Shown here piece after piece: positions 4,050 to 64,000 of a DNA stretch of 64,000 nt. The stretch's first letter is position 1, and every line of letters begins with the position of its first letter. The translations under genes and the position numbers were made by a program. The notes beneath the pieces are model-generated. The model searched no databases. It worked only from the letters and a program-made list of their open reading frames with translations, and was not told where the DNA came from. The stretch is from contig CAYUBQ010000002.1 of assembly GCA_964443135.1 (NCBI GenBank), forward strand, positions 10,888-74,887, in the 5' to 3' direction. The DNA is from an uncultured Desulfobacterales bacterium (GTDB lineage: Bacteria > Desulfobacterota > DSM-4660 > Desulfatiglandales > HGW-15).

Positions 4050-4742
4050 ATGGGAAAAGAACAGATCCTGGTCGTTGACGACGAGGAGGACATCCTGGAG
4101 CTCGTCCGGTTCCACCTGGAACGGGAAGGACACCCGGTCGGCTGCGCCGAGACCGGAGAGAAGGCCCTCGAGCTGGCGCGCGCCGAGAGGCCCGCGCTCG
4201 TGCTCCTCGACCTCATGCTGCCGGGAATCGACGGCCTCGAGGTGGCGAGGCTGATGAAGGCGGACCAGGCCCTCCGGGACATCCCCATCGTGATGCTCAC
4301 GGCCAAGGGGGAGGAGGCCGACGTGGTCACCGGCCTGGAGCTCGGTGCGGACGACTACGTGACCAAGCCCTTCAGCCCCCGGGTCCTGCTCGCGCGGGTC
4401 AAGGCGGTGCTCCGGCGCGGTGGCCGAATGGCGCCCGAACCGGACGAGACCGGCGTCATCCGGCGCCACAACCTCGTCATCCACCCGGGACGCCGCGAGG
4501 TGCTCGTGGACGAGAAGCCCGTCTCCCTGACCTACACGGAGTTCGCCGTCCTGGCCTACCTGGCCCGGCGGCCCGGATGGGTCTTCACCCGGACCCAGAT
4601 CGTGGACGCAGTGCGGGGGGACGACTACCCGGTCACGGACCGATCCGTCGACGTCCAGATCGTGGGGCTCCGCCGAAAGCTCGGCGAGGCCGGGTCCTTC
4701 GTGGAGACCGTCCGCGGCGTCGGATACCGATTCAAGGAGTGA
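4050..4742 (+). CDS. OmpR/PhoB-family response regulator (REC + winged helix)
   Basis: ILVVDDEEDILELV...LVLLDLMLPGIDG...MLTAKGEE...DDYVTKPF...GVGYRF. PhoB-like by sequence and by neighbourhood (PhoR-like kinase, PiT, DUF47). Confidence 0.9.
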   Translation: MGKEQILVVDDEEDILELVRFHLEREGHPVGCAETGEKALELARAERPALVLLDLMLPGIDGLEVARLMKADQALRDIPIVMLTAKGEEADVVTGLELGADDYVTKPFSPRVLLARVKAVLRRGGRMAPEPDETGVIRRHNLVIHPGRREVLVDEKPVSLTYTEFAVLAYLARRPGWVFTRTQIVDAVRGDDYPVTDRSVDVQIVGLRRKLGEAGSFVETVRGVGYRFKE

Positions 4743-4844
4743 CGCATTCGCAAGAACCCGCTCACGCGCCGCGGGTAGCGCTATAACCCGTTGAAATGCC
4801 GTGGGCAGATCTCGAGGTTTCGGGCTTCTTGCGACACCATCAAG
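4740..4844 (+). repeat. copy A of a ~106-nt intergenic repeat family (head TGACGCATTCGCAA, core CAGATCTCGAGG)
   Basis: Hand alignment to copy B (30206-30311): 31/33 identical at the head, a 12/12 core, and about three quarters identity overall with one 1-nt indel. Confidence 0.8.
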
Positions 4845-8643: not shown

Positions 8644-8911
8644 CCGCGTCCGTCTTTTCCCTTTTGCCTCGAGTAGGTGGAGAGTCGTCGTGTGATCCAC
8701 CGCCCGGCGTCTCGCGACCGACGACGGGCGGTCGTTTGTCTTCGAAAACGGACGGATCCATACAGGCCCGATCCCCGGATCTCTACCATTACTCACCCAT
8801 GGAATCAAGGACCTTCAATGGACCCGGACTGCAGAGGTTGTCGAAGTCGGCGTGGGAGGATCACAGCAGCCTGGCGCAGAGCCCGGCCCGCGCTCCTGGG
8901 GCCCGCCGGAG

Positions 8912-10003
8912 CGGGGACGGGGATAAATTCATTACTTGACAGGCCGATCCGGGGTTTGCTAAGAACGATCATGCCCAGAAAATCACGCATTGACACGCCG
9001 GAGGCGCTTCATTTCATCACCGTACGGGGCATCGAGGGCAGAAGGACTTTCCGGGACGACGCGGACCGGGTCAACTTCCGTGATCGACTTGCGCGGATCG
9101 TCACCGACACGAACACGACCTGCTTTGCCTGGGCCCTGATGCCGGACCACGCGCACCTGCTTCTGAGGACCCGGCACGGATCCCTCGCCATGGTGATGCG
9201 ACGGCTGCTCACAGGGTACGCCATCACGCACAACCGGCGGCACGGCCGCCACGGCCCCGTGTTCCTGGATCGCTACCGCTCCGTTCTCTGTCAGGAGGAG
9301 CGCTACCTCGTCGAGCTCGTCCGCTACATCCACCTCAACCCTCTCCGCGCCGGGGTCGTCCCGGACCCGGGTCGACTGGAGACCTACGCCTATGCCGGGC
9401 ACGGTGCCCTGGCCGGCCGGCTGGACTGCCCCTGGCAGGAGGTGCGGACGGTCCTCTCCCGGTTCGGCGAGCGGTCCGAAACGGCCCGCAGGGCCTACCT
9501 CTCCTACGTGCAGGAGGGGGTCTCCCTGGGTCGACGACCGAACCTGACCGGCGGCGGGCTCGTGCGCAGCCTCGGCGGCTGGGAGCAGGTCAGGGAGAGC
9601 CGGCGACGGGGGGAGAGCCCCCAGGGCGACGAGCGGATCCTGGGAGATCCGGACTTCGTCCGGAACGTGCTCGACCGGGCCGGGGAGCGGCTCCACCCCA
9701 GGGACGCCCTGAGCCGGGGGGGAATGGACCTCGCCCGTCTCGCGGAGCGGGCTGCGGAGGCGTTCGGCGTGACGCCGGAGGAGCTGCTCCGCCCGGGCAA
9801 GTACCCGAAGACCGTGAAGGCCCGAAGCGTTTTCTGCTACTGGGCCGTCCGCAAGCTCGGGTACACGGCCACGGGGCTGGCCGGGCGGCTCGGGCTGACC
9901 CAGCCCGCCGTGAGCATCTCGGTCCGCCGTGGGCGGAAGCTCGCACAGGAGTTGAAACTGGGAATCGGGTGAGGACCTTTTTATGAATTCATTCCCGTCC
10001 CCG
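8912..10003 (+). mobile_element. RAYT cassette: tyrosine (HUH) transposase gene bracketed by 21-bp imperfect inverted repeats
   Basis: The left repeat is CGGGGACGGGGATAAATTCAT (8912-8932). The right repeat is ATGAATTCATTCCCGTCCCCG (9983-10003), whose reverse complement CGGGGACGGGAATGAATTCAT matches 19/21. Both flank the gene and its own TTGACA-N18-TAAGAA promoter-like site. Confidence 0.6.
8971..9972 (+). CDS. REP-associated tyrosine transposase (IS200/IS605-type Y1/HUH fold) fused to a DnaA-domain-IV-like C-terminal HTH
   Basis: HUH motif MPDHAHLLL and catalytic-Tyr motif LVRYIHLNPLRAGVV. C-terminal KARSVFCYWAVRKLGYTATGLAGRLGLTQPAVSISVRRG resembles the DnaA C-terminal DNA-binding domain. 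Start at ATG 8971 inside track ORF 8677..9972. Confidence 0.85.
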   Translation: MPRKSRIDTPEALHFITVRGIEGRRTFRDDADRVNFRDRLARIVTDTNTTCFAWALMPDHAHLLLRTRHGSLAMVMRRLLTGYAITHNRRHGRHGPVFLDRYRSVLCQEERYLVELVRYIHLNPLRAGVVPDPGRLETYAYAGHGALAGRLDCPWQEVRTVLSRFGERSETARRAYLSYVQEGVSLGRRPNLTGGGLVRSLGGWEQVRESRRRGESPQGDERILGDPDFVRNVLDRAGERLHPRDALSRGGMDLARLAERAAEAFGVTPEELLRPGKYPKTVKARSVFCYWAVRKLGYTATGLAGRLGLTQPAVSISVRRGRKLAQELKLGIG

Positions 10004-10017
10004 AACCGTGTTTGCGG

Positions 10018-10046
10018 TTGACCTGCCCTTTTCGGTCCTTTATACT
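10018..10046 (+). promoter_or_regulatory. sigma70-type promoter candidate for the MltD-like gene (TTGACC-N17-TATACT)
   Basis: Hexamers at 10018-10023 and 10041-10046. Confidence 0.45.
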
Positions 10047-11986: not shown

Positions 11987-11987
11987 A

Positions 11988-12070
11988 GATCCGGGGACAC
12001 CATACTTATTTCGTTCGCCCCTCGAGGGCAATGGACTCATCCCATGAAATAAGTATGGTGTCCCCGGATC
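11988..12070. repeat. perfect 25-bp inverted repeat (GATCCGGGGACACCATACTTATTTC) with a 33-nt spacer, between convergent genes
   Basis: The left arm at 11988-12012 equals the reverse complement of the right arm at 12046-12070. The spacer contains the 10-nt palindrome CCCTCGAGGG. Confidence 0.9.
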
Positions 12071-12085
12071 TTGTCCCCGGATCTT
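12060..12085. repeat. 13-nt tandem duplication GTCCCCGGATCTT x2 at the right edge of the inverted repeat
   Basis: 12060-12072 and 12073-12085 are identical. The second copy overlaps the MATE stop codon (12084-12086). Confidence 0.85.
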
Positions 12086-19862: not shown

Positions 19863-20945
19863 ATGCCCAGAGCCTCCAGAATCGACGCGCCGGGCGCGCT
19901 CCACCACGTCACGGCCCGGGGAATCGAGCGGCGAAGAATCTTCGAGGCGGACGCCGACCGGGAGGATCTTCTCCACCGCCTCGGAACCCTCCTCCCCGAG
20001 AGCGGCACGACCTGCCTCGCCTGGTGCCTGATGCCCGATCACTTCCACCTCCTCCTGGAGACCGGCACGGTGCACCTCTCCACGGTCATGAGACGTCTCC
20101 TGACCGGATATGCCGCGGGGTTCAACCGGCGGCACGGCAGGAGAGGCCCTCTCTTCGGGGGTCGGTTCCGATCGGTCCTGTGCCAGGAGGAGACCTTCCT
20201 GCTGCCGCTGGTGCGCCACCTCCACCTGAACCCGCTGAGGGCCGGTCTGGTCGACGGCCTGGAGGGGTTGGAGGCCTATCCCTACACGGGTCACGGTGCA
20301 CTGGTGGGGAGGGCGGCGGTCCCGTGGCAGGAGACCGGCCGCGTCCTGGATCGATTCGGCGGGAACGGCCGGTCGGCCGCGGCCCACTACCGCGCCTTCG
20401 TCGCCCGTGGTGCGGCCCTGGGAAGGCAGCCCGACCTGACCGGGGGCGGGCTGGTTCGAAGTGCGGGCGGCTGGAGCCGGCTCAAGGCCCTTCGCAGGCG
20501 CAACGCGGATCCGGTCGGAGACGAGCGGATCCTGGGGGACAGCGACTTCGTGCAGCAGACCCTGGCCCGGGCGGGCGAGAACCTGGAACGGAGGACGCGG
20601 CGGACCCTGGAAGGGGTGACCCTGGAACGGATCGCCTCCAGGGTGGCGGCGCTCTGGGGCATGGAGGATGCCGAGGTCTGGGCCCCGGGCAGGCAGCGCC
20701 GCCGCGTGGAGGCGCGCAGCGTCCTCTGCTACTGGGCGGTGCGGGAGCTCGGTTTCACCATGACGGACCTGGCCCGAAGGCTCGACCTCTCGGTCCCCGC
20801 CGTGAGCAAGTCGGTGCTTCGGGGGGAACGGCTCGTGAGAGAACGGGACCAGGGGCTTCGGGGACCCCCGGCCGCTCAGGCGGGCGGGGGTGATCCGTCT
20901 CAGTCGAACGGGCCTTCCGGCAAGCCCGCTCCGATTCGTTCTTGA
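19863..20945 (+). CDS. RAYT paralogue (HUH fold + DnaA-domain-IV-like HTH) with His at the catalytic-Tyr position
   Basis: Collinear with the gene at 8971 for at least 130 residues (MPRxSRIDxP...MPDHFHLLL...). The motif reads LVRHLHLNPLRAGLV where copy 1 has LVRYIHLNPLRAGVV (CAC at 20217-20219 versus TAC at 9325-9327). Confidence 0.85.
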   Translation: MPRASRIDAPGALHHVTARGIERRRIFEADADREDLLHRLGTLLPESGTTCLAWCLMPDHFHLLLETGTVHLSTVMRRLLTGYAAGFNRRHGRRGPLFGGRFRSVLCQEETFLLPLVRHLHLNPLRAGLVDGLEGLEAYPYTGHGALVGRAAVPWQETGRVLDRFGGNGRSAAAHYRAFVARGAALGRQPDLTGGGLVRSAGGWSRLKALRRRNADPVGDERILGDSDFVQQTLARAGENLERRTRRTLEGVTLERIASRVAALWGMEDAEVWAPGRQRRRVEARSVLCYWAVRELGFTMTDLARRLDLSVPAVSKSVLRGERLVRERDQGLRGPPAAQAGGGDPSQSNGPSGKPAPIRS

Positions 20946-30108: not shown

Positions 30109-30205
30109 GATGGGTCTCCTTTCCATTGGGACTGCTGATGGTTCTGGTCTGGGGGCCGGCCTCGACCCTGCCCGGCGTCCTTTCTCCGAACGGTCTTCCG
30201 AAGAC

Positions 30206-30311
30206 TGACGCATTCGCAAAAACCCGCTCACGCACCGCTGGGGACGATATCACCGGTTCATCTCCCAGGGACAGATCTCGAGGACACGGGCTTTTGTACG
30301 ACTCCATCAAG
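30206..30311 (+). repeat. copy B of the ~106-nt intergenic repeat family
   Basis: Fills nearly the whole gap between the aminotransferase stop (30314) and the SBP leader. Here it is in the opposite orientation relative to the flanking genes compared with copy A. Confidence 0.8.
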
Positions 30312-42276: not shown

Positions 42277-42323
42277 GAGGGCCTTCTCCTTCCGGAAATT
42301 TCCCGCTGGAGCCTTGGGAAAAG

Positions 42324-42344
42324 GGAATGAATGGGATTCATTCC
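42324..42344. promoter_or_regulatory. perfect 9-3-9 palindrome GGAATGAATgggATTCATTCC in the divergent gntR / CN-hydrolase control region (operator candidate)
   Basis: Exact inverted repeat 48 nt upstream of the hydrolase ATG, next to an unusually AT-rich patch (42361-42385). Confidence 0.45.
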
Positions 42345-42405
42345 TACCATATTGGGATGCCCAGTTCAATAATATATTAAATTGGGCTGATCAATCGAAG
42401 GCCCC

Positions 42406-43229: not shown

Positions 43230-43267
43230 CCACGAACCTCATCCACACGCTCCCCGTCTTCCACCTT

Positions 43268-43345
43268 TGACGGATCCCAAAAACCCGCTCACCCGCCGCT
43301 GGAAACGCCATAACCTATTGATGTTCCCGGGGCAGATCTCAAGGA
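43268..43345 (+). repeat. copy C (5' two-thirds) of the ~106-nt repeat family
   Basis: TGACGGATCCCAAAAACCCGCTCACCCGCCGCTGG...GGGGCAGATCTCAAGGA. It has a 14/14 block AAAAACCCGCTCAC and an 11/12 core versus copy B. The 3' arm is missing. Confidence 0.65.
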
Positions 43346-43575
43346 GCGCGTGAGGCGACTGCGCGAGCTCGGCGGCAGGCCCCGGCGCAGGCGGCCCCTG
43401 GTCGATGGAGGCCGCCCCCGGACGACCGGCATGCCGGAGCACGTGCGGCGGCAGGCGCCGTCCCAGGTGGCACGTGGGCGGGCTCTGGTTCCGAGGGAGG
43501 GGAACACGCGGAACCTGGGCGGTCCGGAATGCCGTTTGCATGTCGAATCAAGGAGATGGGAGCCATTCGGGCGGC

Positions 43576-61436: not shown

Positions 61437-62144
61437 ATGGAAGCGGACAACCACACGGGCGGGAATCCGTCATCAGACCCCTTTACGGTGCTGGCCGATC
61501 TCCTTCCCCCGGGGCTCGAGCTGGTCCTCACCCCGGAGGAGGAGGCCGTGGTCCGGGACGCGCTCGAGGAGCCGATCGCCCTGGCGGCGCGGCCCCTTAT
61601 GGTGCAAAAGGCTCTGGCCGTGGCCGCCGCCGCCCACCGGGGCCAGGTGCGGAAAGGCTCGGCGCGGCCCTACATCCTCCATCCCGTGGCCGTGGCCCAG
61701 CTCCTCGTCGAGGCCGGGTGCGGGGACGAGGTGATCGCAGCCGGGCTCCTCCACGACACCCTGGAGGACACGAGCCTGACCCTCGGGGAGCTCCGGGACC
61801 AGTTCGGAGCAAAGGTTGCCAGCGTCGTGGCCGGCTGCAGCGAGCCCCACAAGTCGGTCCCCTGGGAGAAGCGGAAGCGACACACCCTCGTGACGCTGAA
61901 AGCCGCGCCCTGGGAGGTGCGGGTGGTCACCTGTGCGGACAAGCTGGACAACCTGCTCTCCCTGTCCGTGGACCTCGAGGAGCAGGGCGACGCCCTGTGG
62001 GGCCGTTTCTCGAGGGACCGGGACGACCAGGCCTGGTACTACCGCGCCGTCCTGGAGCGCCTTTCCGAAGGCCCCGAGCTGTACGATCCCGGGCTGGAGC
62101 TCCTCCGCCAGCTCCGCCGGGCCGTAGGGGACGTTTTTGCATAA
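61437..62144 (+). CDS. HD-domain protein, RelA/SpoT-type (p)ppGpp hydrolase fold (small alarmone hydrolase-like)
   Basis: AAAAHRGQVRKGSARPYILHPVAVAQLL...IAAGLLHDTLEDT. Start at MEADNH (61437) with GGAGGA upstream. The last five codons and the stop lie in repeat e. Confidence 0.8.
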   Translation: MEADNHTGGNPSSDPFTVLADLLPPGLELVLTPEEEAVVRDALEEPIALAARPLMVQKALAVAAAAHRGQVRKGSARPYILHPVAVAQLLVEAGCGDEVIAAGLLHDTLEDTSLTLGELRDQFGAKVASVVAGCSEPHKSVPWEKRKRHTLVTLKAAPWEVRVVTCADKLDNLLSLSVDLEEQGDALWGRFSRDRDDQAWYYRAVLERLSEGPELYDPGLELLRQLRRAVGDVFA

Positions 62145-62153
62145 TTGCATAAC
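62127..62153 (+). repeat. 27-nt repeat, copy e (GGGGACGTTTTTGCATAATTGCATAAC)
   Basis: Identical core to copies f and g (which are inverted). Contains the TAA stop of the HD gene (62142-62144). Confidence 0.95.
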
Positions 62154-62190
62154 GCGACCCCTTCCCATCCCTCCGGTCTGCCGAGCCATC

Positions 62191-62217
62191 GTTATGCAAT
62201 TATGCAAAAACGTCCCC
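62191..62217 (-). repeat. 27-nt repeat, copy f (inverted)
   Basis: GTTATGCAATTATGCAAAAACGTCCCC is the exact reverse complement of copy e. Copies e and f form a 27-bp stem with a 37-nt spacer. Confidence 0.95.
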
Positions 62218-62237
62218 TGCGATCGGCCCGTGCTTGC

Positions 62238-62264
62238 GTTATGCAATTATGCAAAAACGTCCCC
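62238..62264 (-). repeat. 27-nt repeat, copy g (inverted, direct with f)
   Basis: Exact third copy. It encodes the last residues (GRFCIIA) and the TAA stop (complement of 62239-62241) of the molybdopterin oxidoreductase. Confidence 0.95.
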
Positions 62265-64000
62265 CAGTTTTTGACAGAATCTTCTCGGGGGTGATGGGGA
62301 GGTCCCGGATCCTCACGCCCACGGCGTCGTACACGGCGTTGGCGACGGCGGACGCCACGCAGACCATACTGCCCTCCCCGACGCCCTTGGCGCCGAAGGG
62401 ACCGGTGGGCTCGCGGGACTCCACAATGACGGCGTCGAGCTCGGGCACGTCCACGGATCGCAGCAGCCGGTAGTCCCTGAGGCTCCCGTTCCGGACCTTC
62501 CCCTTCTCGAGGACCAGCCCCTCGGTGAGGGCCCACCCGATGCCCATGACGCCCCCGCCGGTGATCTGCCCCTCGACCAGGTCCGGGTTGACGGCCCGGC
62601 CCACGTCGAACGCCCCGGTGAGCCGGACCACCCGCACCTCCCCCGTGTCCGTGTTCACCTCGACCTCGGCGAAGTGCGCGCCGTAGTACCCGGGCATGGA
62701 GGGGGCCACGCCGGAGAAGGTCTCCACGATCTGCTCGCAGCGGGCCATGTCCGTGATCTGGGTCTTGCGCATGAGGTCCGCCACGAAGAGGCCGTGCTCC
62801 GGGTCTTCCCGGTCGTGGATCCAGCTCTTTCGGATCTCCAGGTCCTCGGGGGGAACGCCCAGCTCCGCGGCGGCAGACTCGAGGATCCGCCTCCGGGCCT
62901 TCCCGGACGCCTTTTGTACGGCGAGCCCGCCGCAGTAGGTCTGACGGCTGCCGTGGGTGCCGCCGTCCAGGGGCGTCACGGAGGTGTCGGTGGGCGAGAG
63001 GCCGATCTTCTCCATCTCGATTCCCAGCACCTCCGAGGCGATCTGGGCGAGCGCCGTCCGGTTGCCCTGCCCGTCGTCCGCGGCCGCGGTCACCAGTCCG
63101 ACCGTGCCGTCCGCGTGGATCATGACCGTGGCGGAGGCGGGGTCGGGCAGGCCCCGGGCCGCGCCGGTCCCGTGGAGGAGCACGGCCATCCCGCGTCCCC
63201 GCTTCACGGGGCCCCGGGCCGCCTCCCGGTTCAGCGCGGCATTCCAACCGAACACCCGGCCCCCTTTCTCCAGGCATTCCTCGAGGCCGTTGCTGCGGAT
63301 CTCGTCGTCGAAGACCGGATCGATCCGGCCGAGGCGGCGGTAGTTCTTCAGCCTGAACGCCACCGGGTCCATCCCCAGCTCCCGGGCGATCATGTCCATC
63401 TGGGACTCCTGGGCGAAGTTCATCTGGGGGTTGCCGTACCCGCGGAACGCACCGCCGGGGCTCGTGTTGGTGAAGACCGCGGCCGCCTGAAAATCCACGT
63501 TGGGAATGTCGTAGAGCCCCACGCCGGTGGAGAGGCAGTCCGCGAGGACGCCGATGTAGTGGGTGCCGTATGCGCCGGCGTCCGCGAGGATTTTGATCTC
63601 GTTCGCCGTCAGGACGCCGTCCCGGGTGACGCCGGTCCTGAGATCGACGGTCATGGGGTGCCGGGACTCCGTGGCGGTGAGCTCCTCCCTCCGGCTGAAG
63701 GAGATCCTGACAGGACGCCCGGTCTTTTTGGACAGGCTGCAGCACAGGGTCTCCAGCCCGTGCACCAGGCCACAGCGGCCGCCGAAGGACCCTCCCGTGT
63801 GAGGCTTGACGATCCGGACCCGGTTCATGGGGAGACCCAGGGCGCCCGAGAGATACATCTGGCTCCAGTGGGGCAGCTGCGTGGACGAGTAGACCGTCAG
63901 GCGCCCGTCCGCCCCGTAGTCCGCCAGGCAGGTCCCGATGGGCTCCAGGGGCGTGTGCTTCTGCTTGGAGGTGTGAAAGCGGTTCTCGAGAACCAGGTCG
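62239..64000 (-). CDS. xanthine dehydrogenase/aldehyde oxidase-family molybdopterin-binding subunit; N-terminal part lies beyond the window end
   Basis: The frame stays open upstream of the track Met (63858) to position 64000 (...ENRFHTSKQKHTPLEPIGTCLADYGADGRLTVYSSTQLPHWSQMYLSGALGLP...VRIVKPHTGGSFGGR). Typical MoCo-binding motifs GGAFRGYG and GPFGAKGVGE. Confidence 0.88.
   Translation of the reverse strand, partial: DLVLENRFHTSKQKHTPLEPIGTCLADYGADGRLTVYSSTQLPHWSQMYLSGALGLPMNRVRIVKPHTGGSFGGRCGLVHGLETLCCSLSKKTGRPVRISFSRREELTATESRHPMTVDLRTGVTRDGVLTANEIKILADAGAYGTHYIGVLADCLSTGVGLYDIPNVDFQAAAVFTNTSPGGAFRGYGNPQMNFAQESQMDMIARELGMDPVAFRLKNYRRLGRIDPVFDDEIRSNGLEECLEKGGRVFGWNAALNREAARGPVKRGRGMAVLLHGTGAARGLPDPASATVMIHADGTVGLVTAAADDGQGNRTALAQIASEVLGIEMEKIGLSPTDTSVTPLDGGTHGSRQTYCGGLAVQKASGKARRRILESAAAELGVPPEDLEIRKSWIHDREDPEHGLFVADLMRKTQITDMARCEQIVETFSGVAPSMPGYYGAHFAEVEVNTDTGEVRVVRLTGAFDVGRAVNPDLVEGQITGGGVMGIGWALTEGLVLEKGKVRNGSLRDYRLLRSVDVPELDAVIVESREPTGPFGAKGVGEGSMVCVASAVANAVYDAVGVRIRDLPITPEKILSKTGGRFCIIA

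Follow-up and report, generated by a model that had tools for sequence, protein, structure and literature searches.

A probable TIRtron beside mltD in an uncultured Desulfobacterales bacterium: a TIRYT gene with a DnaA domain IV-like tail between terminal inverted repeats

We analysed a stretch of 64,000 nucleotides of DNA from an uncultured Desulfobacterales bacterium (the window), in which a gene for a Y1 HUH nuclease lies between two inverted repeats just upstream of mltD. With good confidence this cassette is read as a TIRtron. Its gene is a TIRYT, corresponding to TnpA_REP subclass 2.1, whose product ends in a domain similar to domain IV of DnaA; the gene is bounded by terminal inverted repeats (TIRs), is predicted to be expressed from a leaderless mRNA, and would be an old and stationary resident of its chromosome. 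The cassette belongs to a kind that was described in 2013 and 2018, and the observations made on it are incremental rather than those of a new kind of system. The following parts are found in the cassette:

8907-8932, plus strand: left repeat (TIR-L), in which 8912-8932 comprises the GGGGACG head and, after it, an A/T-rich core
8936-8965, plus strand: promoter-like site, with the -35 element TTGACA at 8936-8941, an 18-nt spacer and the extended -10 element TGCTAAGAA at 8957-8965
8971-9972, plus strand: TIRYT gene, 333 aa, with the Y1 HUH nuclease domain at about residues 1-135
9730-9951, plus strand: C-terminal helix-turn-helix (HTH), DnaA domain IV-like, about residues 254-327
9983-10008, minus strand: right repeat (TIR-R), starting 10 nt past the stop codon and lying 15 nt upstream of the mltD -35 element (10018-10023)

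The two arms at 8912-8932 (CGGGGACGGGGATAAATTCAT) and 9983-10003 pair at 19 of 21 positions and define a unit of 1092 bp. When the pairing is widened, 26 nt (8907-8932 with 9983-10008) match at 85%. An inverted match of this quality appears in none of 100 dinucleotide-preserving shuffles of the window. An earlier note on this DNA had given the same arms and the same unit, and all of its coordinates are correct. The inner end of TIR-L is 38 nt ahead of the ATG. On a matrix derived from 51 left repeats found in other genomes, whose consensus is ataGGGGACGtcCATaAaATTATAAgTTtaca, TIR-L is the top site of the window with 24.3 bits, compared with a maximum of 9.2 bits in shuffled sequence. No third copy of the 21-nt arm is present in the 64-kb window with up to 3 mismatches allowed. 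Single arms do not fold on themselves (z = +0.8 for TIR-L and +1.4 for the other arm), and the reading of the cassette repeats as REP-like hairpins (REP, repetitive extragenic palindrome) was rejected on this observation. A terminator role for TIR-R was also rejected, as no terminator-like site is called between the cassette stop codon and the mltD promoter. A search of the whole 64 kb with Rfam at gathering thresholds returned no known RNA.

The N-terminal domain carries the motifs H60-A-H62 (9148-9156) and RYIHLNP with Tyr119 (9325-9327), which the earlier note had recognized as those of REP-associated tyrosine transposases (RAYTs). Pfam Y1_Tnp matches the window protein with 26.9 bits against a cut-off of 23, while the NCBIfam equivalog REP_Tyr_transpos gives 75.1 bits and stays under its 80-bit cut-off. 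In the AlphaFold2 model, which was computed from 42 relatives and has a mean predicted local distance difference test score (pLDDT) of 81, the top solved structure found by Foldseek is 4er8_A, a complex of the E. coli RAYT with a REP hairpin (E=1.1e-6, template modelling (TM) score 0.72, target-normalised). The transposases of ISDra2, IS200 and IS608 follow with E values of 2.5e-4 to 5e-3. His60, His62, Arg118 and His121 are invariant in 88 of 88 relatives, and Tyr119 is present in 85 of them. Judged from the predicted fold, the nuclease domain is an HUH/Tyr domain of the RAYT lineage. It is followed by a conserved, helical middle region with the motifs GGGLxRSxGGW and GDERILGD.

For the C-terminal domain, the best PDB match of the family profile is T. 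maritima DnaA (2z4r, residues 344-412, E=0.0043). The corresponding part of the model superimposes on the DNA-binding domain of M. tuberculosis DnaA (3pvp) in Foldseek with E=6e-3 and a target-normalised TM score of 0.66. In the window protein itself, Pfam Bac_DnaA_C is seen at residues 261-300 with 15.9 bits and does not reach its cut-off of 31.5; the same family is found in 37 of the 42 family members (best E=1.2e-6), and HTH_23 in 17 of the 42. The HTH residues are strongly conserved across the relatives. Thus the C-terminal 70-90 residues align with DnaA domain IV (Bac_DnaA_C, PF08299) by both profile and structure, whereas the AAA+ module of DnaA is missing in the TIRYT. Based on the Pfam, profile and Foldseek results, both domain assignments of the earlier note stand, including the DnaA-domain-IV-like C-terminus for which it had proposed a profile search.

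RAYT-like genes with terminal inverted repeats instead of REPs were described by Di Nocera, De Gregorio and Rocco (2013; BMC Genomics 14:522, PMC3733652) as TIRYTs and their units as TIRtrons. According to that description, many TIRYT repeats carry the head GGGGWSAS at a similar distance from the gene, and dimers or clusters of the repeats occur in some genomes. Quentin, Siguier, Chandler and Fichant (2018; BMC Genomics 19:475, PMC6006769) placed most TIRYTs in subclass 2.1 of TnpA_REP, which they equate with the TIRYTs. Proteins of its subgroup 2.1.2 end in a domain similar to Bac_DnaA_C, HTH_23 or HTH_28, and their genes have no REP nearby. We compared the window protein with the TIRYT sequences in the supplementary alignment of the 2013 paper. 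BLASTP gives E values of 9e-23 for Smlt4509, 2e-21 for Smlt1152 and 1e-19 for Pca3049 (range to 3e-10), with the HUH and Tyr residues in register, but only 0.03 for the E. coli RAYT. The cassette is therefore a member of the described kind. The protein would fall into subclass 2.1 by its domain architecture and its similarity to TIRYTs.

The cassette shares with the TIRtrons a Y1 gene between TIRs, a G-rich head, a similar distance to the gene, and gene-less dimers and clusters. With TnpA_REP subgroup 2.1.2 it shares the long Y1 protein, the Bac_DnaA_C/HTH_23-like C-terminal extension and the absence of REP-like structures nearby. Three differences from the published TIRtrons are observed. The head is GGGGACG here and in the Desulfobacterota relatives (family consensus GGGGACGy). 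The protein ends in a DnaA domain IV-like HTH, whereas the published alignment has a basic tail of the GRPRK type. And the window copy is a resident that has stayed in place in conserved synteny, with a right repeat that is decaying in relatives. The fold, the HUH motif and the Tyr-x-x-x-NP motif are also those of the E. coli TnpA_REP/RAYT (YafM, 4er8), the gene of which likewise lies between inverted copies of its presumed substrate, is inherited vertically and has a low copy number. The TnpA proteins of the IS200/IS605 insertion sequences (IS608, ISDra2, IS200) have the same Y1 HUH fold, in keeping with the Y1_Tnp score above cut-off. IS200/IS605 elements have subterminal hairpins and no TIRs; their transposase is about 130-150 aa long without an HTH, and tnpB is often present. 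In contrast, the cassette has TIRs, no hairpin ends and no tnpB, and encodes a 333-aa protein with an HTH.

The architecture of the cassette is repeated across the family. In the search for relatives, significance was reached by 7896 of the 8000 candidates scored. GTDB species representatives contain at least 593 stretches coding for a relative, of which 80 were kept, nearly all from Desulfobacterota metagenome-assembled genomes (MAGs). The loci analysed are 79 fetched ones plus metagenome loci; they provide 75 non-redundant upstream regions, mostly of Desulfobacterota. Flanking repeats were searched as the best inverted match between 200 nt upstream and 200 nt downstream of the gene. In most of the about 80 loci a GGGGACG-headed, A/T-rich repeat pair of 15-40 nt stands out above the shuffled background, with the inner end of the left repeat 30-45 nt before the ATG and the start of the right repeat 0-10 nt past the stop codon. 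A 24-nt repeat matrix run over 1.15 Mb of foreign loci yields 178 matches, compared with none in shuffles. A family gene is flanked by 113 of them, and the other 65 include gene-less pairs and clusters as well as some right repeats which run into the stop codon and so lie outside the flank window. In a scan of metagenome contigs for GGGACGGGRATDAATTMAT, none of the 68 matches is beside a TIRYT gene, and their count is about the rough chance expectation.

In other genomes the unit appears with sharp ends. Locus L060 has two copies 5 kb apart with 98.2% identity over 1111 bp; the match breaks off exactly at GGGAC...GTCCC. Two loci of one MAG (L015/L016) are 98.6% identical from just outside the left head to about 650 bp beyond the right repeat. 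Several loci carry two family genes inside 20 kb. In those genomes the TIRtron unit behaves as a discrete, duplicating element, which suggests mobility. Carriage on plasmids or phages was rejected: no full-length member was found there, only matches of the N-terminal domain with about 30% identity. In L064 (9943-12124) a full copy is immediately preceded by a partial copy of the same TIRtron, made up of the left repeat and about 165 nt from the start of the gene, in a nested or tandem arrangement. Stuttered heads, that is tandem GGGGAC(G) reiterations outside the repeats, are seen upstream of the left repeat in L014, L026, L042, L060, L069 and L084; in 9/75 non-redundant loci at least two GGGAC are found within 85 nt of the ATG.

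The predicted promoter lies between the left repeat and the gene. TIR-L stops 3 nt before the -35 element, and the -10 element TAAGAA (8960-8965) is separated from the ATG by 5 nt. A Shine-Dalgarno motif (GGAG, GAGG or AGGA) is not found upstream of the cassette ATG. The earlier note had described this arrangement, TTGACA-N18-TAAGAA without a Shine-Dalgarno motif, in the same way and suggested a leaderless transcript. A strict consensus scan does not call the cassette promoter because TAAGAA has no final T. Counting from the A of the ATG, the 75 non-redundant loci show conservation of a T at -35/-34, a TG at -15/-14 and a TA at -12/-11. A -10 element starting with TA (at -14 to -10), together with a -35 element of at least 3/6 matches, is present in 68 upstream regions; most often the -10 element starts at -12 and the spacer measures 17 nt. 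The TG extension is seen in 55 of the regions, and an SD-like motif is seen in 8 and absent from 67. The GGGAC head is placed at -58, -57 or -56 in 59 of the loci. This geometry is that of a sigma-70 promoter with +1 on the A of the ATG, so that a leaderless mRNA is predicted. Comparison across the family thus supports the suggestion that the cassette is expressed without a leader. The available part of the TIRtron description does not mention such a promoter geometry.

The orthologues of the window gene in L001, L002, L004, L006, L157 and L158 are all located between the phoR-phoU-pit cluster and mltD. Their identity to the window protein is 96% in L002/L003, 86% in L001/L006, 75% in L004/L005, 69% in L157 and 65% in L158. 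No record of the exact window protein was found, and among genomes a Desulfobacterales MAG, at 86% identity, matches best. The left repeat and the promoter are kept in all six groups. L002 and L158 retain the right repeat, whereas it is degraded in L001/L006 and missing from L004/L005 and L157; in L004/L005 Tyr119 is in addition replaced by Arg. With the loss of the right repeat, and of the tyrosine in one lineage, features that serve movement only are being lost in the relatives, while the open reading frame (ORF), the promoter and the left repeat are retained. The ratio of nonsynonymous to synonymous substitution rates (dN/dS) of the orthologues is 0.25-0.33, compared with 0.09 for PiT and 0.14 for PhoU in the same genome pairs. 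By this measure, selection on the window TIRYT gene is purifying but relaxed. There is no near-identical extra copy of the cassette within the 64 kb. The comparison of loci shows the window copy as an old and apparently vertically inherited resident, not a recent insertion.

A phoH gene lies between pit and the cassette in L001, L004 and L006; it is absent from the window and L002 (about 1.6 kb missing) and from L157. When the window and L002 are compared with the loci that have phoH, homology resumes exactly at the head of the left repeat. No deletion of phoH by the element is claimed, because L157 also lacks phoH and in no comparison is the spacer ahead of the head conserved. What is left of the 3' end of a PIN/PhoH gene is seen at 8854-8888 (L001 4272-4306 for comparison).

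Three further features of the window bear on the cassette:

11987-12071, no strand assigned: gene-less inverted doublet with perfect 26-nt arms AGATCCGGGGACACCATACTTATTTC and a 33-nt spacer, between mltD and a MatE gene
19863-20945, plus strand: second TIRYT paralogue, 360 aa, 56% identical to the first, 10.9 kb away
62124-62267, no strand assigned: gene-less TIR-like cluster of three 29-nt repeats GGGGACGTTTTTGCATAATTGCATAACGC, one forward and two reverse

The paralogue and the two gene-less clusters are missing from the earlier note. In view of the paralogue, the gene is not single-copy. Nor are the flanks unlike all other repeats of the window, as had been stated, since both clusters have a GGGGAC head and an A/T-rich core.

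In the cluster at 62124-62267 the 29-nt arms are 100% complementary. The three repeats score 15.0, 13.9 and 11.5 bits on the matrix, above the shuffled maximum of 9.2, and the hairpin folds with -37 kcal/mol (z = -12). It sits between convergent ORFs whose ends overlap the outer repeat copies; a cognate TIRYT for this cluster was not identified. An identical forward-reverse-reverse layout is found in L056. The doublet at 11987-12071 folds with -35 kcal/mol (z = -10.5), and its head GGGGACAC is an exact fit to GGGGWSAS. It is missing from the 96%-related contig L002, where an intact ordinary terminator hairpin occupies the site. Because the doublet scores low on the Desulfobacterota matrix, its putative kinship to the cassette repeats is one of architecture only. 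In L004 a partly similar sequence is present at the position of this doublet. A tandem duplication of TGTCCCCGGATCT follows the doublet, and CCCCGGATC-type repeats are observed after right ends in L060 (11032-11060) and in the window doublet.

Other repeats were noticed in the window. A palindrome, GGAATGAAT-GGG-ATTCATTCC, occupies 42323-42345 in an A/T-rich divergent intergenic region and has the 10-mer GGGAATGAAT in common with the cassette TIR-R, which may be coincidence; near it, 42350-42381 scores 14.0 bits on the repeat matrix. A 91-nt direct repeat occurs in three copies of 63-78% identity (4737-4827, 30203-30293 and 43264-43354). These may be paralogous coding sequence, as the first copy spans the junction of a response-regulator and a histidine-kinase gene.

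If the TIRYT acts in the manner of TnpA_REP and IS608, its HUH histidines would hold a metal ion, and Tyr119 would cleave single-stranded DNA at the heads of the repeats and rejoin it. Two inverted copies of the repeat may pair as a stem and in this form be the substrate. Cutting and rejoining would then move the unit and also the gene-less repeat doublets. The C-terminal HTH would bind the A/T-rich core of the repeat, which in TIR-L spans -38 to -57 and could in addition act as an UP-like element of the promoter. As TIR-L as a whole spans -38 to -64, a protein bound there would autoregulate the TIRYT gene. Autoregulation is common where the promoter of a transposase sits inside the left end of an insertion sequence. 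According to Quentin et al. (2018, PMC6006769) the GGGGWSAS head is unlike the DnaA box TTATNCACA; a DnaA-box reading of the A/T-rich cores was considered by eye only.

Several points weigh against reading the cassette as a TIRtron that works in this manner. Cleavage, DNA binding and transposition by TIRYTs are activities that we infer by analogy. To our knowledge the characterised Y1 HUH enzymes use single-strand hairpins, and the individual cassette repeats are unfolded. The head of the cassette repeats, GGGGACGG, agrees with the published GGGGWSAS at 7/8 positions, with G where A is expected. The -10 element of the window lacks the usually conserved final T and is 1 nt nearer to the ATG than the family mode. 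Finally, a dN/dS of 0.25 is 2-3 times that of the neighbouring genes and also fits a slow decay without retained function.

Of the other explanations, domestication deserves the most attention, and we regard it as a possibility to be kept in mind, if a tentative one. The protein would be a DNA-binding protein whose nuclease is dispensable, the left repeat would be an operator or promoter element, and its inverted partner would be a decaying relic. This would account for the left repeat and promoter kept in all orthologues and for a right repeat lost at least twice. It would also account for the Tyr-to-Arg change in L004/L005, where the ORF is intact and dN/dS is 0.25, and for the high conservation of the HTH residues. 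The paralogue at 19863-20945 fits as well. It has the HFH motif, and in its RHLHLNP motif His replaces the catalytic Tyr. No flanking repeat above background and no promoter-type conservation upstream were found for it, and an SD-like GGGGGAG precedes the gene. Its orthologues (P0121-P0125, 94-64% identity) are all Tyr-less with His or Phe, keep the order TPR (tetratricopeptide repeat) gene, paralogue, peptidase M20 gene down to 64% identity, and have dN/dS values of 0.24-0.47, so that a lineage without Tyr, repeats and promoter is still under purifying selection. However, the window copy is among the 85 of 88 members that retain Tyr119, and the HUH histidines are invariant even in proteins without the Tyr, an argument for a catalytic site that is still of importance. 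Moreover, no target gene or regulon was identified, and dN/dS is above that of the neighbouring genes.

The opposite reading, in which the cassette is a still active autonomous insertion sequence in its source genome, is unlikely in our view. It could draw on the intact HUH motif and Tyr119, on arms that still match at 19/21, on the near-identical repeat-bounded copies in L060 and L015/L016, and on the gene-less clusters, which suggest some TIRYT activity in the lineage, with the doublet at 11987-12071 absent from L002. But in each of the six related contig groups the gene has kept its place next to mltD, at identities as low as 65%, there is no third repeat copy in the 64 kb, the arms have diverged at 2/21 positions, and orthologues shed the right repeat and the Tyr while the gene stays. 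For the TIRtron of the window, a stationary resident, possibly on the way to domestication, is more likely than a currently mobile element.

REPs are short GC-rich palindromes with a GTAG tag that are dispersed in many copies. A canonical RAYT in a REPtron, i.e. a single-copy, domesticated transposase with cognate REP hairpins, is a very improbable description of the cassette. The structure 4er8 is the best match, REP_Tyr_transpos scores 75.1 bits, and in source databases relatives are labelled 'REP element-mobilizing transposase RayT'. Nevertheless, that score is under the cut-off of 80, the flanks are neither palindromes nor tagged with GTAG, and no further copy of them exists in the 64 kb. 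The protein is twice the length of a RAYT, with about 200 extra residues including the HTH; the REP hairpins of REPtrons and REPINs have no counterpart here. The E. coli RAYT is matched with E=0.03 compared with about 1e-20 for TIRYTs, and two paralogues occur in one window. In addition, genes of subclass 2.1 have no REP-like sequences in their vicinity according to Quentin et al. (2018, PMC6006769). The earlier note read the cassette correctly, and its term RAYT cassette, right as to the lineage, is refined to TIRYT and TIRtron as the precise names, in place of a REP-associated RAYT. A chance match, or a regulatory palindrome of ordinary type without relation to the gene, has a negligible probability as the explanation of the inverted repeat: only two copies are present in the window and the right arm is not found in all orthologues, but 0/100 shuffles give such a match, and the head-plus-core repeat recurs at fixed distances in most of the about 80 foreign loci, that is around homologues in dozens of genomes, as opposed to the chance repeat that the earlier note had wanted checked.

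A wider proposal, which we put forward as speculative and rather doubtful, is that the TIRtrons of Desulfobacterota form a large, uncatalogued autonomous family in which a Y1 HUH enzyme acts on TIRs instead of hairpin ends and a leaderless promoter is built into the left end. The two window genes would then represent successive stages of domestication, in which first the right repeat, then the Tyr, and then the left repeat and promoter are lost, and the copy linked to mltD would have a host function.

The contribution of this analysis to the known TIRtrons is the precise name of the cassette, the evidence from across the family for a promoter in the left end, from which leaderless transcripts are predicted, and a series of decay or domestication in the orthologues and the paralogue. 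For annotation, genes of this kind should be called TIRYT, and their units TIRtron, not 'RAYT' or 'IS200 transposase'. Bench studies of TIRYTs are not described in the available parts of the TIRYT literature (PMC3733652, PMC6006769). Experimental material is provided by the consensus repeat ataGGGGACGtcCATaAaATTATAAgTT, fixed 56-58 nt before the ATG. Further material is given by the conserved promoter geometry, by the copies of other genomes bounded by GGGAC...GTCCC, and by the orthologues and the paralogue that have lost the Tyr or a repeat and are still under purifying selection. Since hairpins are the only substrates for which the action of Y1 HUH enzymes is understood, the TIRtrons raise the question of how such an enzyme would handle terminal inverted repeats.

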